A DNA stretch of 64,000 bases from NCBI GenBank assembly GCA_964590105.1, contig CAZPYM010000001.1, positions 76,768-140,767 on the forward strand, read 5' to 3'. Position numbers and translations under genes: made by a program. Source of the DNA: an uncultured Gammaproteobacteria bacterium. GTDB taxonomy: Bacteria; Patescibacteriota; Patescibacteriia; UBA11705; JABHMO01. The notes below the pieces were generated by a model. The model saw nothing but the letters and a program-made list of their open reading frames with translations, had not been told where the DNA came from and did no database searches. Below, one piece after another: positions 3,920-12,122 of this stretch. Numbering within the stretch: the first letter of the stretch is position 1; each line of letters starts with the position of its first letter.

Positions 3920-4289
3920 ACAGGGCGCGTGGTTTGCGTACCTGATGTGGTTCTTTTCCTTCTTCGAAGACCACGACGCCGCCCTTGGCGAAAGGTGCGC
4001 AGCGGGTGATGTGGCAGACATCCCTTTTGCCTACGCGGCGGAGTTTTGCTTCGTAGATGAGCAGGCAGAATCCGGTAGTTTCGTTTTTGTGACAGACGGT
4101 TTGGTCGAAGTAGAACTTGCCTACTCCCAGCCCTTTGCCCAGGTCAACTTCGAGTTCGACCAAGTCGCCGAACGGTTTCTGCGACTTTACTAATCCGAAC
4201 ACGTTGTGAACATCGCTCTGGTTTCTTTGCATTGGCGTCTCCCTGCGTTTTTGTGTTTGGTCCCAGAGAACAAATTGAATAAGTTTCAT
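3918..4289 (-). CDS. hypothetical protein, visibly GC-richer than its neighbours (function unknown; QueF/T-fold resemblance considered but not supported)
   Basis: 123-aa ORF from MKLIQFV with protein-like composition; the 97-aa antisense ORF looks like nonsense. Local GC clearly above flanking genes. Confidence 0.4.
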   Translation of the reverse strand: MKLIQFVLWDQTQKRRETPMQRNQSDVHNVFGLVKSQKPFGDLVELEVDLGKGLGVGKFYFDQTVCHKNETTGFCLLIYEAKLRRVGKRDVCHITRCAPFAKGGVVVFEEGKEPHQVRKPRAL

Positions 4290-6958: not shown

Positions 6959-6976
6959 ATAATTTTAGTTGAAACA

Positions 6977-7005
6977 TTGACAAAAATCATTAGATGTGAT
7001 ATAAT
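6977..7005 (+). promoter_or_regulatory. near-perfect sigma70 promoter with an extended -10 element driving the 7061..8899 gene
   Basis: TTGACA (6977..6982), a 17-nt spacer, then TGaTATAAT (6997..7005). A GAGGGA Shine-Dalgarno sits at 7051..7056, 4 nt before the ATG. Confidence 0.6.
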
Positions 7006-7060
7006 ACCTTGTTAAGGGAAGGTCCTTTGACAATGGTCTAACTATTAATGGAGGGATGAA

Positions 7061-8899
7061 ATGTACGCATTGTTCATGGCTTTTGTGGTGTCTTTGCTTG
7101 GCGTTGTGCCACTCATGATCCGGAGGCGTTTTCTGCCTGCCGCAGTTGCCGGCGCCATCATGACGATTCCCTGGTGGATCGCGCTCTACTGCACCTGTCC
7201 GTCGTTGGTCTGGCCGCTGTGGGGCTGGATTGGTGGAGCAGTGGTAATCAACTGGCTCATTTCCGCCATTATCGACGGAGTGGTGAAGGATGAGCCAACC
7301 CTGACACTGCTGTTCCCTGTCATTGGGATGGGGATCCTGGCCATTGTGTCGCTCAGTGGCTGGGGATTGTTTCGCGCCAGCGATTACAGGAACCTTATCG
7401 GTGAAGTTCAGAAGATGGAGTTTACCAAGGATATGCAACCGAGCGACCCGGCCCACATCCGGATCGTGCCGCGGGAGCTGGCTGAATTCATGGCTGACAA
7501 GCAGCTCGGCGAAGCGGAGGGCTCCATCGGCAGTCAGTATCGAGTTGCCAAGGAATTGATGACGATCCAACGAGTGAACGGTGAATTGTGGTGGATCGCG
7601 CCGCTCGACTACAACGGATTCTCTGTCTGGACCTCGGTCGGCACAGTTCCCGGCTATGTCAAGGTGAATGCTGAGGATCCCTACCGGCCGGTGGAGTTGG
7701 TGCTTGACAAGCAGTACAAGTACACGCCGGGAGCATATTTCGGCGACAACCTGGAACGACATTTGTGGACCAATGGTTACATGACCAGAGGGCTCACGGA
7801 GTACTCGTTTGAAGAAGACGAGGCTGGCAAAGGTTGGTGGGTGGTGTCGGTGTTTGAGCCGACCATCAGCTACTGGGGAGAGAAGATCACCGGCGTGGCT
7901 GTGGTTGACCCGGCTTCGGGGGAAATTACTTTTTACGGAAAGGATGAGATCCCTGACTGGCTCGACAGAGCAGTTCCCCGGGAGTTTGCGGTTCAGTACA
8001 TGTCGAACTGGGGAAAGTTCACCCATGGATGGTGGAACACTCTCTGGGGCAAGAAGGAAGTCATGGATGTGACCCCGATGGGGAAAAACGAGGACTTCGT
8101 TGAAGTGATTTACGGCGCTGACGGCGAACCGTACTGGTTCACCGGCATTACGTCGGCCAGCAAGGAAGACGCGGCTCTGGTGAGCGTGATGTACATGCAC
8201 ACGCGCACCGGCAAGGTCATTGATTATCGGATTTCGGGGTTGAACGAAGAAGCAGTCATGCACGTTGTCAACAACGAAATCCATTACAAGGGCTGGACCG
8301 GCAGTACGCCAATGCTCTTCAATTTTTACGGGCGGGCGATCTGGGTGAGCACAGTGCTCGGCCAGAGCAACACGTTCAAGGGCGTCGCCCTGGTAGATGC
8401 GGATAACCAGAAGATCTACTGGGATGAGAACAACCCGCTTGGCGGATTTGCCAAGTTGCGGGTGGAGCTCGGCCAAGAACAGATCGCGGTGCCGCTCTCT
8501 ACGAGTGATGAACGGATTGCTTTCTCGGGGACGGTGGCAAGGATTGCTCTCGAAGGCTCGAATTACTACGTGCTGGTGAATGACTTGCCGCACGCCCTCG
8601 CTGGAACAAAGAGCATTTCGCTCGATCTGATTTTCACCCGGCCCGGCGATTCTGTGAAGGGCGAGTATCTTCAGTCCGGGGAAGATATTTTCTCACTGGC
8701 TTCCTTCGACAATCTGGCTGTAGAGCTCAAGCCTTCTGCCAAGCAGGAAGAACTGCGGGAGCGGACGGCAGGGCATCAGGAGGAAGTGAGGAATACGGAA
8801 GATTCCCGGGACATGAAGAAGCAGGTTGACAACATGAGTCCCGAGGAGCTGCGGCAGCTGCTCGAACTCAAGAAACAGGCGCAGGATAGCAAGGAGTAA
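7061..8899 (+). CDS. GC-rich 612-aa membrane protein of unknown function (three N-terminal TM helices, a large Trp/Tyr/Gly-rich probably beta-rich domain, and a charged coiled-coil tail); likely foreign
   Basis: Long ORF with E. coli-like codon choice (CTG, GGC, CCG, GCC) in a GC-rich block. It has its own consensus promoter, SD and terminator; the antisense 542-aa ORF is a GC artefact. Confidence 0.7.
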   Translation: MYALFMAFVVSLLGVVPLMIRRRFLPAAVAGAIMTIPWWIALYCTCPSLVWPLWGWIGGAVVINWLISAIIDGVVKDEPTLTLLFPVIGMGILAIVSLSGWGLFRASDYRNLIGEVQKMEFTKDMQPSDPAHIRIVPRELAEFMADKQLGEAEGSIGSQYRVAKELMTIQRVNGELWWIAPLDYNGFSVWTSVGTVPGYVKVNAEDPYRPVELVLDKQYKYTPGAYFGDNLERHLWTNGYMTRGLTEYSFEEDEAGKGWWVVSVFEPTISYWGEKITGVAVVDPASGEITFYGKDEIPDWLDRAVPREFAVQYMSNWGKFTHGWWNTLWGKKEVMDVTPMGKNEDFVEVIYGADGEPYWFTGITSASKEDAALVSVMYMHTRTGKVIDYRISGLNEEAVMHVVNNEIHYKGWTGSTPMLFNFYGRAIWVSTVLGQSNTFKGVALVDADNQKIYWDENNPLGGFAKLRVELGQEQIAVPLSTSDERIAFSGTVARIALEGSNYYVLVNDLPHALAGTKSISLDLIFTRPGDSVKGEYLQSGEDIFSLASFDNLAVELKPSAKQEELRERTAGHQEEVRNTEDSRDMKKQVDNMSPEELRQLLELKKQAQDSKE

Positions 8900-8958: not shown

Positions 8959-9007
8959 GAAATTTTTGTTAAAATGTATACATAAACCTTTTAATTGTCC
9001 CTATCCT

Positions 9008-9625
9008 ATGGAAGGCAAAAAATTCGTCACTATTTCCGGCAATATCGGCATCGGCAAATCAACACTGACAAAGAAGTTGGCGGATTATTATGGTTTTAAA
9101 CAATATCTGGAGCCAGTGGCGGAAAATCCTTATTTGGAAGATTTTTACAAGGACATGAAAAAATGGGCCTTTCATTCGCAAATGTATTTTCTTGGCAAGC
9201 GATTGCAGGATCATTACACTTTGGTTGTGGATAAACATTCGGTGATCCAGGACAGATGCATTTACGAGAACGCGGAAATTTTTGCCAAATATTTGCATCG
9301 GCGCGGATTTATTTCCAAGCGAGACTGGAAAGTGTATCAAACTATTTATAAAACCTTTACCCGCGTTTTGCCGGCGCCGGATCTGGTTATTTATTTAAAA
9401 GCTTCAACAGACAAAATAATGCAGCGAATAGAAAAGCGCGGCCGCGAATTTGAAAAAGGAATTTCCAAGCGCTATATTGAAGACTTGAATAATCTGTATG
9501 ATGACTGGGCGGGTAATTTTAAATTGTCGCAAGTTATTATTATTAATTATGATGATCTGGATCTAAAAAATAATGCCATTGATTTTGAGAACTTTTTGTC
9601 GGTGGTGAATGAGTGTTTGAAATAA
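9008..9625 (+). CDS. deoxynucleoside kinase (dCK/dGK/dAK family)
   Basis: P-loop ISGNIGIGKSTL and dNK-family motifs (for example ERC..); start moved to MEGKKF so it clears the upstream terminator. Confidence 0.7.
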   Translation: MEGKKFVTISGNIGIGKSTLTKKLADYYGFKQYLEPVAENPYLEDFYKDMKKWAFHSQMYFLGKRLQDHYTLVVDKHSVIQDRCIYENAEIFAKYLHRRGFISKRDWKVYQTIYKTFTRVLPAPDLVIYLKASTDKIMQRIEKRGREFEKGISKRYIEDLNNLYDDWAGNFKLSQVIIINYDDLDLKNNAIDFENFLSVVNECLK

Positions 9626-9710
9626 AACACGAATGGGCTGCACGCGAATGACGCGAATTAGAGAGTAAATCGAAGACAACGAAGCAATGAAATAAAGAAA
9701 CAATTAATCA

Positions 9711-9737
9711 ACAAAGAGATTTGTTGGTTTTTTGATT
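9711..9737 (+). terminator. intrinsic terminator after the kinase gene
   Basis: aacaaa-gaga-tttgtt hairpin followed by ggtttttt. Confidence 0.4.
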
Positions 9738-9781
9738 TTAGGATGATTTACCATGGTAAAAAAGTTATCCACAGGGGGCTC

Positions 9782-9809
9782 TTGACGTATTTAATTACAC
9801 GAGTATAAT
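9782..9809 (+). promoter_or_regulatory. sigma70-like promoter for the large noncoding region; a consensus DnaA box lies just upstream (9765..9773)
   Basis: TTGACG (9782..9787), a 16-nt spacer, TATAAT (9804..9809); upstream TTATCCACA. Confidence 0.5.
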
Positions 9810-9816
9810 AGGCATT

Positions 9817-10952
9817 ACAGTCGCAAAAAGCTCATTACAAGTCAGAGGCAGAAAAAGACAAGGGACGTCATGGATTGAAGCGCAAGCAGAGAACCATGAT
9901 CTAGCTATGAAAAGCGCCTTGCACTTACCTGCACCATTGATCAAGTAGCCAAAGCCAGCGAGTAATCAAAGGCCAAAGCAAAAGATCAAGCCAGCTGTTC
10001 AAGCCAAAGCAGAAAGCTTAGTGAAGACAACAAACTCTTGATTTCGTAGAGATACGGAGCCAAAGGCAAGTTGAAAACACAAAGCCAAAAGCAAAAGCAA
10101 GAACACGACTTCAAAACCTATGACCTCACGGTCAGAAGTCCAGAAGTTCAAGGCAGTACTAGCACTGTGGTTGAAGAAAAAGACCGGAGCAATCCGGAAA
10201 CTATCCTCAACACTAATCCAGTCTTTGGAATTGTAGCAATACAAACCCAAAGAAAAGCCAGACCAAAATCCGGCTCAAAGCAAAAAGCAACGTCGCAAGA
10301 CAATGCAGAAAGCTAAGAGCTAGATAAAAGTTTGACCTGGAATCACGCAAGCGCAAGCAAGCAAGATTCCCAGTGATTAGAAGGCAATGGAAGCCGCGAT
10401 CGCAAGATCAAAGCAACCAAAGCCAAACACAGCGCGAAAAGTTCAAGCGCAAACCGGGGACCAGACCAAAGCGGTCTGCTTCGAAAGAAGACTTGTTACT
10501 TCGGTAATAAGTAGCCGGAATGCATCAGTCCCCTTAAAAGGATTGAAAGATGCCAAAGGGCAAACCTGACAAGGAAAAGGAAAGCTTGATGGAGAGAGTA
10601 TCTATCAAAAAGGAAATAAACCTTGGCAACAAGGCAGACATCCTTGGAGAAAGTAACTCAAACTATCTTTAGTTCACTTCGGTGGACAAGCTGCCAAATC
10701 AATTCAGAAGAACTTCTGGAGGAGGATGACACCTGGAGGAGCAATCCAAAAGGAATATTCCTTGATACCATTAGTTCAAAAGAAAAGAAGAGGTCACCCC
10801 CAGTACCTGTCATGGCGAGCAAAACGCGCGTCTACTTGAACCAAGCACTTGGTAAAATCTTTCATGTAAATGAGCCTGAGGCAAGCCAACCAGCAAGCCA
10901 CTAGCGACTCATAGGAGGCAATCGTCACAACGAGAGCCTCCTGTTTTTTTTG
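9817..10952 (+). ncRNA. candidate large (~1.1 kb) structured noncoding RNA of unknown class
   Basis: Promoter-to-terminator unit with stop codons in all frames and only 60-93 aa low-complexity ORFs. Strongly T-poor and A-rich on the + strand, with CAAAGC-like repeats. Contains two C(UUCG)G hairpins (cttgttacTTCGgtaataag; gttcacTTCGgtggac), a GNRA hairpin (ccggaGCAAtccgg) and a cagacc/ggtctg hairpin. Confidence 0.45.
10914..10952 (+). terminator. intrinsic terminator ending the noncoding unit
   Basis: ggaggc…gcctcc stem with an inner tcg/cga stem, followed by gtttttttt. A second GC hairpin (ccctgcc/gggcaggg) lies just downstream. Confidence 0.6.
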
Positions 10953-11114
10953 TACAGATGTACCCCTGCCTGCCGGCGGGCAGGGATTAAGTACAGATTG
11001 AGGGAGTTTGTATGATAATCGGATGTGTCGCTTTCTTTGTTTATATATTTATTATTGTTATAATTTGAATACGATTTTGCCTTCGCATAAACTGAATCGT
11101 TTAATCAAAATCCA

Positions 11115-12122
11115 ATGACTAGCGCAAGAAAAAAAATTATTGTCGGAATAATTTATGGCGGAAAATCGCCTGAGCATGAAGTTTCCATTGTTTCAGCAAA
11201 GGGAGTGATTGAAAATATCAATCGTGAGAAATTTAGTGCAGTTAAAATTTTTATTGATAAGAAAGGACAATTTTGGCTGGATAATAAAAACAGAAAGCGG
11301 TTTGACCCTTTTGTCGACGCGAGCAAGATTGATGTTTTTTTCCCTGTCTTGCATGGATACGGAGGAGAGGACGGCGAAATTCAAGGATTATTGTGTTCTA
11401 TTAATAAACCTTTTGTCGGCGCGGATATTTTGGCTTCCGGGATTTGTTTGGACAAAGGAATTTTTAAGTTGATATTAAAAGCGGAAGGCTTGCCGCAAAC
11501 CCGGTTTGCTGTCTTGGATTTTACAAAGACGGCAAAAGCAAGTATGCGGATTGCAATCATTGAAATAAAGCTAAAATTTCGATTTCCGGTTTTTGTCAAG
11601 CCGTGCAATTTGGGTTCGTCAGTTGGAATTTTTAAAGTGAAGAATAAAAACAGGCTTGCCGGCTTTATTGATCAGGCAAAAAAATTCGATTCACGAATCG
11701 TCATAGAGGAGTCGGTTGAAAAGTGCAGAGAAATTGAAATTTCTGTGTTGGGAAATAATTACAAAAATACGAAAGTATCATTACCGGGTGAAATAGTTTC
11801 CGGCGCGGAATTTTACGATTACGACGACAAATATAATAATTGCAAAGCAAAAACTGTCGCGCCGGCGGAATTGGGAGCAAGGCAGATAAAGCAAATTCAG
11901 CAATTGGCCATGAGGGCATATAATTTGGTTTGTTGCGAAGGCCTGGCCAGAGTGGATTTTTTGATCAATCAGAAGGGGAAAATTTATATTAACGAAATTA
12001 ATACAATTCCCGGATTTACGCCAATTTCCATGTACCCAAAAATGTGGGAAGCATCGGGACTTGATTATAAACGGTTAATAACAACGTTAATCTTGCTGGC
12101 GTTGAAAAAGAACCTTAAATAA
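11115..12122 (+). CDS. ddl: D-alanine--D-alanine ligase
   Basis: IVGIIYGGKSPEHEVSIVSAKGV N-terminus and ATP-grasp C-terminal motifs (…EINTIPGFT…). Confidence 0.85.
   Translation: MTSARKKIIVGIIYGGKSPEHEVSIVSAKGVIENINREKFSAVKIFIDKKGQFWLDNKNRKRFDPFVDASKIDVFFPVLHGYGGEDGEIQGLLCSINKPFVGADILASGICLDKGIFKLILKAEGLPQTRFAVLDFTKTAKASMRIAIIEIKLKFRFPVFVKPCNLGSSVGIFKVKNKNRLAGFIDQAKKFDSRIVIEESVEKCREIEISVLGNNYKNTKVSLPGEIVSGAEFYDYDDKYNNCKAKTVAPAELGARQIKQIQQLAMRAYNLVCCEGLARVDFLINQKGKIYINEINTIPGFTPISMYPKMWEASGLDYKRLITTLILLALKKNLK

Follow-up and report, generated by a model that had tools for sequence, protein, structure and literature searches.

Roughly positions 9816 to 10951 on the plus strand of a 64,000-nt stretch of contig CAZPYM010000001.1 (hereafter the window, meaning that whole stretch) very probably specify an independently transcribed, large structured noncoding RNA (ncRNA) that represents an undescribed family, inherited vertically within a clade of Parcubacteria-group Patescibacteria. 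We are, if anything, slightly surer that the family is a genuine stand-alone structured ncRNA family. A preliminary description of this DNA had read the region as a candidate ncRNA, large, structured, and belonging to no recognized class, and that proposal is now supported by conservation, covariation, noncoding status, and the lack of any Rfam match. Of the checks that it had named, those that were run (a search of Rfam, conservation in related genomes, the presence of an intact open reading frame (ORF) in homologues, covariation, and folding relative to shuffled sequence) all came out in favor of such an RNA. The parts of the transcription unit are as follows.

9765..9773, plus strand: consensus DnaA box TTATCCACA, an exact match preceded by an A-tract.
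9782..9809, plus strand: sigma-70-type promoter, TTGACG-16 nt-TATAAT, with 11 of 12 consensus matches.
9816..10951, plus strand: RNA gene of about 1.14 kb, with limits set by the promoter and terminator and a match to the family profile.
10911..10951, plus strand: intrinsic terminator, a 9-bp plus 4-bp stem (10911-10944) and then U8, from folding.
11056..11066, plus strand: extended -10 promoter TGTTATAAT of the downstream ddl gene, read from the sequence.

The host is a Patescibacterium whose nearest named relatives, judged by Ddl and deoxynucleoside kinase (dNK), are Kuenenbacteria and Falkowbacteria. The element occurs at one syntenic position in nine lineages, Kuenenbacteria and Falkowbacteria among them, namely the window, L007, L090, L092, L094, L096, L112 (the same lineage as L104), L098, and L113. 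In the relatives used for synteny, dNK is 71-83% identical, the gene order is QueH-UvrD-(x)-dNK-RNA gap-128-aa gene-ClpC-like-MraY, and the gap after dNK, 1.0-1.7 kb long, holds either no gene call or spurious ones. Measured from DnaA box to terminator, the element is 850-1339 nt long across the lineages. The RNA region of L007, whose Ddl shares 89% protein identity with that of the window, is 88% identical at the nucleotide level. With nhmmer, L090 gives a full-length match to the window RNA (E 1e-68) and the other lineages match its 5′ and 3′ parts. The family profile finds 9765-10951 once in the window, once at each related locus, and nowhere else in the 1.2 Mb searched. Conservation is uneven along the molecule, since conserved RNA blocks diverge by 0-8% between the window and L007 as compared with 18% at fourfold-degenerate sites of ddl, and the variable modules at 10264-10335, 10462-10512, and 10702-10790 diverge by 30-50%. 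Phage genomes (searched by blastn) and viral contigs contained no related sequence. A pattern scan of metagenomes returned 11 stretches, of which one was a new lineage (L104); the others were known members repeated or were judged unrelated, for example a kinesin P-loop and other promoters.

The surroundings of the element vary. In L098, two genes are inserted between dNK and the RNA. Only in the window and L007 lineages does the ddl gene (11115-12122 in the window) separate the RNA from the 128-aa gene, and a Kuenenbacteria contig carries ddl about 6 kb upstream of QueH. To judge from gene order, the placement of ddl beside the RNA is a recent local relocation. A contig search with Ddl gave, L007 aside, no relative above 68% identity, and ddl was dropped as a synteny anchor in favor of dNK after it led to this one close relative only, the relatives at 68% and 60% carrying ddl elsewhere.

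The gene has its own strong promoter and its own terminator, and both are kept among the homologues. Within 9000-11500 the TTGACG-16-TATAAT site, which the preliminary description had pointed out, is the top-scoring sigma-70-like promoter, and transcription is predicted to start at about 9814-9817. The DnaA box lies 8 nt 5′ of the -35 hexamer, at about -52 to -44 relative to that predicted start. Already recognized at 9765..9773 as a consensus match, the box has turned out to be better conserved than anything else at the locus: it is invariant in 9/9 lineages, and the longer AAAAGTTATCCACA is invariant in the 7/7 lineages that were aligned. The gap from the box to the -35 TTGAC(G/A) is 8-9 nt across lineages, L113 excepted, and the spacing between the -35 TTGAC and a TAnnAT -10 element (about 17 nt) is constant across all homologues. 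From the -10 element to the end of an invariant RNA motif, AAAG..C.UUACAA, the distance is 39-43 nt. The promoter region, with the DnaA box foremost, is thus the best-conserved stretch of the locus, and the layout box-N8-TTGAC has a single occurrence in the window. A consensus DnaA box in a promoter region marks the gene as a candidate member of the DnaA regulon. At the other end, the strong terminator that had been reported is present, with its coordinates shifted slightly; its stem and T8 fold with a minimum free energy (MFE) of -20.7 kcal/mol (z -4.5), and none of 200 shuffles was equally stable. A simple scan overlooks this terminator because its loop region is long. All homologues terminate in a GC-rich hairpin and a T-run. 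Past the terminator, in the homologues as in the window, a TGnTATAAT element serves the next gene, which makes the RNA a transcription unit of its own and not a leader.

Several observations concern the box and its neighborhood. In L113 (4679-4730) the DnaA box lies 18 nt 5′ of the -35 element in place of the usual 8-9 nt, which is one helical turn farther, and in L092 (6681-6698) the box is one half of an inverted pair, TGTGGATAG and TTATCCACA. On the reverse strand of an unrelated contig, L111 (about 4130-4240), a DnaA box-N9-TTGACA layout occurs together with a similar AAAAGCUCUUUACAA word and an ORF next to it. Either this promoter type is in wider use or L111 holds a very distant relative; it was left uncounted as a family member, since its box-promoter layout runs into the ORF.

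Compensatory changes, found above the level of controls, indicate that base pairs of this RNA are maintained. Helices near the two ends were located as listed here.

9819..9824, plus strand: P1 5′ strand, AGUCGC, partner 10904-10909; RNAalifold on two and on nine sequences.
10904..10909, plus strand: P1 3′ strand, GCGACU, with a conserved CUAG before it and 1-4 nt ahead of the terminator hairpin; alignment and RNAalifold.
9830..9839, plus strand: P2 5′ strand, GCUCAUUACA, inside the invariant AAAG..C.UUACAA, partner 10865-10875; structure prediction.
10865..10875, plus strand: P2 3′ strand, UGUAAAUGAGC, after a conserved GGUAAAAUC motif (10851-10859); structure prediction and alignment.
10878..10901, plus strand: P3 hairpin, GAGGC ... 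GCCAC, between P2 and P1; read by eye.
9848..9863, plus strand: P4 5′ strand GCAG (9848-9851), internal loop AAAAAGA (9852-9858), and P5 5′ strand CAAGG (9859-9863); RNAalifold.
9917..9932, plus strand: P5 3′ strand CCUUG (9917-9921), internal loop CACUUAC (9922-9928), and P4 3′ strand CUGC (9929-9932), then ACCA.

P1 and then P2 pair the 5′ end with nucleotides ahead of the terminator and so close the molecule. In eight lineages P1 comprises 6-11 bp, with 85.7% of cells paired and compensatory changes in 4/10 pairs (C-G/A-U; A-U/G-C/C-G/G-U; A-U/G-C; G-C/A-U). Its covariation score of 0.336 compares with 0.130 ± 0.036 for shuffled alignments (0/500 as high) and 0.004-0.22 for slid controls. 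P4 and P5 enclose a conserved 7x7 internal loop, AAAAAGA/CACUUAC. RNAalifold on nine sequences finds canonical pairs in 31/32 cells of P4 and 24/25 of P5, with two compensatory pairs in each, and in five lineages 88% of the P4/P5 cells are paired and 4/10 pairs are compensatory versus 0-1 in slid controls. P2 and P3 are given without tool statistics because MAFFT misaligns their 3′ strands. Read by eye, P2 has compensatory changes at three positions (C-G/U-A, U-A/A-U, and A-U/U-A/C-G), and the homologues have P3 equivalents with differing stems (GAGG/CCUC, GAGGU/ACCUC, GGAC/GUCC, and GGAGU/ACUCC). Two other long-range pairings were tried and set aside. One was an 11-nt perfect complement, 10139-10149 with 10710-10720, two central pairs of which are broken in L007, where a local hairpin is kept instead by compensation. 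The other was a pairing suggested by RNAalifold, GGCAG (9847-9851) with CUGCC (10691-10695), which by eye is unsupported in L090 and L098 and is replaced by P4 (9848-9851/9929-9932).

Between these helices lies an array of small hairpins with hyperstable loops, whose members in the window are given below.

10042..10747, plus strand: central tetraloop-hairpin array with A-rich linkers, from a hairpin scan and compensatory changes relative to L007 and L090.
10042-10059, plus strand: GAGA hairpin of the array.
10121-10134, plus strand: UCAC hairpin of the array.
10184-10197, plus strand: GCAA hairpin of the array, ccgga-GCAA-tccgg.
10231-10244, 10292-10301, and 10398-10409, plus strand: GCAA hairpins of the array.
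10462-10478, plus strand: hairpin cagacc/ggtctg, read from the sequence.
10479-10490, plus strand: GAAA hairpin of the array.
10491-10512, plus strand: UUCG hairpin of the array, acttgttac-TTCG-gtaataagt.
10621-10634, plus strand: GCAA hairpin of the array.
10661..10702, plus strand: conserved module, AACUAUCUUUAG - hairpin 10672-10687 - AAGCUGCCAAAUCAA, read by eye.
10672-10687, plus strand: UUCG hairpin of the array, gttcac-TTCG-gtggac.
10738-10747, plus strand: GCAA hairpin of the array.

The three tetraloop hairpins and the cagacc/ggucug hairpin of the preliminary description all exist, the positions that it stated being off by 4-6 nt, and it had undercounted the total. Hairpins with UUCG or GNRA loops and stems of at least 3 bp number 12 in the RNA, as compared with 1.98 ± 1.39 in dinucleotide shuffles (0/300 as many), and when every 1139-nt window in the 64 kb is counted, no other value is as extreme (plus-strand mean 3.2 ± 1.9). 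The reverse strand of the window RNA has two. Counts of 11-13 are found in 7/9 homologues; by strand, most homologues have 9-13 on the plus strand (L113 has 5) and 0-4 on the minus strand. Loop preference differs by lineage, the window having 10 GNRA and 2 UUCG loops and L092 having 10 UUCG and 2 GNRA. Across the family, k-mer enrichment is confined to tetraloop words (TTCGG, CTTCG, and GCAAG). As a whole, the RNA folds with an MFE of -337.8 versus -265.2 ± 8.3 for shuffled sequence (z = -8.8); 200-nt windows across 10000-10700 reach z -3 to -5, and z values of the homologues include -10.6, -8.5, -5.6, and -3.0.

The hairpins of the array are themselves maintained by compensation. In the local test, the window sequence by itself supplied the predicted structure, with pairs spanning at most 100 nt, and this structure was then scored on an alignment of the window, L007, and L090. 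Pairs altered on both sides yet still paired numbered 38, versus 16.7 ± 3.1 in shuffled alignments (0/500 as many) and 1-11 in slid controls, and a test on two sequences found 10 compensatory pairs versus 1-3 in slid controls. In individual cases, CCGGA-GCAA-UCCGG is swapped for CUGAG-GCAA-CUCAG, and stem and loop change together from CGUA-GAGA-UACG to CGUG-GCAA-CACG and from GACC-UCAC-GGUC to GAAC-UUCG-GUUC. Loops are exchanged between GNRA and UUCG across lineages (the window as compared with L007 and L090), and at 10462-10478 and 10491-10512 the relatives have hairpins of other length and sequence in substitution. In the module at 10661..10702, the AACUAUCUUUAG and AAGCUGCCAAAUCAA flanks are kept in the window, L007, L090, L092, and L098, and by eye the stem differs per lineage, L094 included. 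In L090 (7664-7861), an internal RNA module starting with CCAAAUCAAUCGGA is also duplicated in tandem (99 nt, 78% identity), a sign that the RNA grows by module duplication.

Comparison with described RNA families returned nothing that would name this RNA. Rfam 15 covers OLE, GOLLD, ROOL, HEARO, raiA, RNase P, transfer-messenger RNA (tmRNA), signal recognition particle (SRP) RNA, 6S RNA, and group I/II introns. At gathering thresholds it finds two tRNAs only in the whole window and nothing in seven homologous loci. At permissive settings, E ≤10 gives three unrelated chance matches in the window (E 0.44-9.7), and E ≤5 gives no match within the RNA intervals of six homologous loci. ARAGORN finds 0 tRNA or tmRNA genes in 9000-11500, and tmRNA was rejected on that ground; a search of the full-text literature did not find such an RNA described in Patescibacteria. 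Outside the RNA, the UvrD helicase gene of L092 (5708-5806) and that of L113 (3732-3826) contain sub-threshold matches to Rfam n00280 ('C. difficile sRNA included into helicase gene'); they probably reflect conservation of the coding sequence. Having failed every family test that was run, and differing in host clade, in synteny, and in its DnaA-box promoter, this RNA is therefore rated a new class.

Could the region nonetheless be a decayed protein gene, or the mRNA of one or more small or low-complexity proteins? It does hold ORFs of 81, 60, and 93 aa, as had been reported, along with one of 40 aa; some are called as genes in public assemblies, and a 158-aa ORF spans the 3′ half in L007. The preliminary description was also right that the plus strand is T-poor and A-rich and interrupted by stops in all three frames. 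Positions 9815-10952 (1138 nt) contain 431 A, 256 C, 254 G, and 197 T (38% A, 17% T), the AT skew of 0.30-0.48 over the RNA region is the strongest and longest such run in the window, and the three plus frames carry 21, 10, and 12 stops. TAA, TAG, and TGA all occur in each frame, and therefore an alternative genetic code rescues no ORF and was rejected. The ORFs have zero matches in Pfam, and the 81-aa ORF, compared with 1.84 billion representative proteins, returned itself and two matches judged to be repeat-inflated chance, one to a 4-repeat protein (P0126) and one to what is a CRISPR-like array in translation (P0127), with no real homologue. Nor is any one frame conserved among the homologues: eight or more indels, each of 1, 2, or 11 nt, separate the window from L007 and break the frame of every ORF, the ORFs called in the two differ, and translated similarity among more distant lineages is weak and scattered over all six frames. 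A pseudogene would also not be expected to retain a promoter, a terminator, tetraloop hairpins, and compensatory changes in nine lineages, and we consider a coding origin highly improbable. A very long cis-regulatory leader, a riboswitch or attenuator whose terminator governs read-through, would suit downstream genes that lie on the same strand with the terminator between them and the RNA. However, the RNA is not the 5′ untranslated region of one conserved gene: the downstream gene varies (ddl in the window and L007, the 128-aa gene elsewhere), each has its own extended -10 promoter past the terminator, and in L098 the RNA is separated from dNK. No alternative anti-terminator pairing was seen, and P1 stops just short of the terminator. 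Every known riboswitch leader is several times smaller than the 0.85-1.3 kb of these elements. A leader is only marginally less improbable than a coding origin.

The stand-alone structured ncRNA also has to be set against two readings in which structure or transcript matters less. One is a sponge RNA like CsrB/RsmZ or CrcZ that sequesters a protein through many short single-stranded motifs. The window RNA does have A-rich linkers and iterated CAAAGC/GCCAAAGC/AAAGCA words, and to that extent the CAAAGC/AAAGCC iterations of the preliminary description are real; they turn out to be confined to the window/L007 lineage and show no family-wide enrichment, AAGC occurring 30 times here versus 7-16 times in other lineages. 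GGA, at 24 copies in the window RNA versus 16.7 ± 3.2 expected, does not count as enriched, has a z of at most about 2, and lies within about 1.5 standard deviations or less in six other lineages. With enrichment restricted family-wide to tetraloop words, a CsrA or Hfq sponge was rejected on the k-mer analysis, and the conserved long-range helices and internal loop are not traits of sponge RNAs; a sponge of some kind has perhaps the best standing of these alternatives and is still improbable. The other reading is a DNA-level locus, DnaA-titrating or origin-like, with an incidental transcript. It would account for a DnaA box that is the most conserved single element and for the over-representation of boxes in the window, where DnaA-box-like 9-mers with at most one mismatch number 28 versus 15.0 ± 3.4 in shuffled sequence (0/100 as many). 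Yet most lineages have a lone box, neither clustered nor accompanied by an AT-rich unwinding element, and the GC skew keeps its sign across the region; without a skew switch, a replication origin was rejected. More than 1 kb downstream of the box is also conserved and bears marks of an RNA, in strand-asymmetric loops, compensatory stems, and G-U pairs in P1. We give this locus type as little credence as a protein gene. None of the four is favored, and each strikes us as very improbable.

A number of points weigh against our interpretation or narrow it. The covariation rests on nine lineages, several of them close, with shuffles and slid pairings as controls, and the architecture of the central approximately 700 nt is resolved among the three closest lineages only. 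When the identical local procedure was applied to coding sequence of ddl from three genomes at similar divergence, a small excess appeared there too (19 versus 13.1 ± 2.6; 11/500 shuffles as high). The procedure thus has a slight bias of its own, which the RNA signal clearly exceeds. Folding scores for the entire molecule are weak in two homologues (z -1.5 for L090 and -2.0 for L092). L097, with dNK 76% identical, is without the element, and its next gene comes directly after dNK; the RNA is therefore not indispensable. The exact TTATCCACA occurs six times in the window, five of these being distant from the RNA promoter and apparently within coding regions, and DnaA boxes are thus generally frequent in this DNA. 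Finally, the start and 3′ end of the transcript are placed by sequence signals, and the binding of DnaA to the box is a prediction that would allow either sign (activation or repression).

As a mechanism, we propose that DnaA on the box, in a region that also serves upstream activators and UP elements (about -52 to -44), would modulate recruitment of RNA polymerase, and that the level of the RNA would then track replication-initiation status through DnaA occupancy. That the RNA is regulated by DnaA at all seems to us an evenly balanced proposition. Hyperstable loops and paired ends could make for a long-lived RNA, and GNRA loops together with unpaired adenosines could allow tetraloop-receptor and A-minor packing into a compact particle, which may be a scaffold for a ribonucleoprotein, an assembly of RNA alone, or a ribozyme. 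Features of this sort are what such packing usually draws on, and together they suggest a stable, compact particle; we tentatively put forward a role as a scaffold or particle, perhaps an abundant one. Action by antisense pairing or as a cis-acting leader is unlikely. More speculatively still, the RNA could be the first representative of a new class of ornate RNAs, kilobase-sized and at home in bacteria of the candidate phyla radiation, self-folding, possibly self-assembling or catalytic, with a synthesis tied directly to DnaA and a place in the cell cycle, although we would call this broader picture doubtful.

Other features of the window and its relatives lie outside the RNA itself. Just past the terminator (10952-10998), GTACAGAT occurs in two copies, both within 50 nt and the only ones in 64 kb, that bracket a GC-rich palindrome, CCCCTGCCTGCC and GGCGGGCAGGG (10961-10985), which is missing from L007. 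The word TACAGAT is likewise found past the terminator in four copies in L007 (1375-1415), three in L096, one in L098, and none in five other lineages. What lies here may be a small repeat that is prone to insertion, or else a site bound by a protein; a weak Rfam match to Chlorobi-1 over the same interval (E 0.44) looks like chance. Upstream, at 7061-8899 on the plus strand, a 612-aa ORF without a Pfam domain has a GC content of 0.55-0.57 amid 0.36-0.42, and L097 has a 617-aa gene in the equivalent UvrD-x-dNK slot. The high GC probably also accounts for an antisense ORF of 542 aa (6965-8593) opposite the 612-aa ORF.

Among bacterial RNAs longer than 500 nt, a structure that is both intricate and conserved is a great rarity, and the few large structured RNAs known (rRNAs, RNase P, group I/II introns, OLE, GOLLD, and ROOL) each opened a field. 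Much of bacterial diversity belongs to the Patescibacteria, whose genomes are tiny and of which almost none have been cultivated. In a genome so streamlined, a conserved noncoding gene of 1 kb implies a function worth its cost, and the invariant DnaA box offers an unusual handle linking replication initiation to a structured RNA. Nine sequences, a core of P1, P2, P4, and P5, and the promoter signature suffice to seed a covariance model. If the proposal is true, ultra-small, genome-reduced symbionts would have an RNA component in their cell-cycle machinery.

Placed among known systems, the RNA shares with OLE, GOLLD, and ROOL a length of hundreds of nucleotides to about 1 kb, its own transcription, many conserved helices, a function that was obscure at discovery, and a GC content above an AT-rich genome background. 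Unlike them, it matches no Rfam 15 model in sequence or structure, its hosts are Patescibacteria and not Bacillota or phages, and its locus lies on the chromosome, in single copy and at a syntenic position. GOLLD and ROOL usually accompany phages or tRNAs, and OLE adjoins oapA; none of the three is known to have a DnaA-box promoter. Like the RNase P, 6S, and SRP RNAs, it has a terminal helix that joins its ends (P1), a conserved core, variable peripheral hairpins, and abundant GNRA and UUCG loops, but it has no match to their covariance models at E ≤10, their diagnostic motifs were not detected in it, and it is 3-10 times longer. CcnA of Caulobacter is reportedly a small base-pairing RNA under CtrA control. 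CcnA, a cell-cycle-controlled ncRNA (PMC8959179), and the RNA described here are alike in linking transcription of an ncRNA to a master regulator of replication and the cell cycle, the link to DnaA being predicted in our case. The present RNA differs in being about 1.1 kb long and ornate, with no evident antisense target. The promoter resembles those of E. coli nrdAB and dnaA and of B. subtilis sda, where a consensus DnaA box also lies just upstream of or overlapping the -35 element. Boxes so placed are functional at nrdAB of E. coli and at sda of B. subtilis. Those promoters drive protein genes, whereas the one described here drives a predicted 1.1-kb structured RNA.

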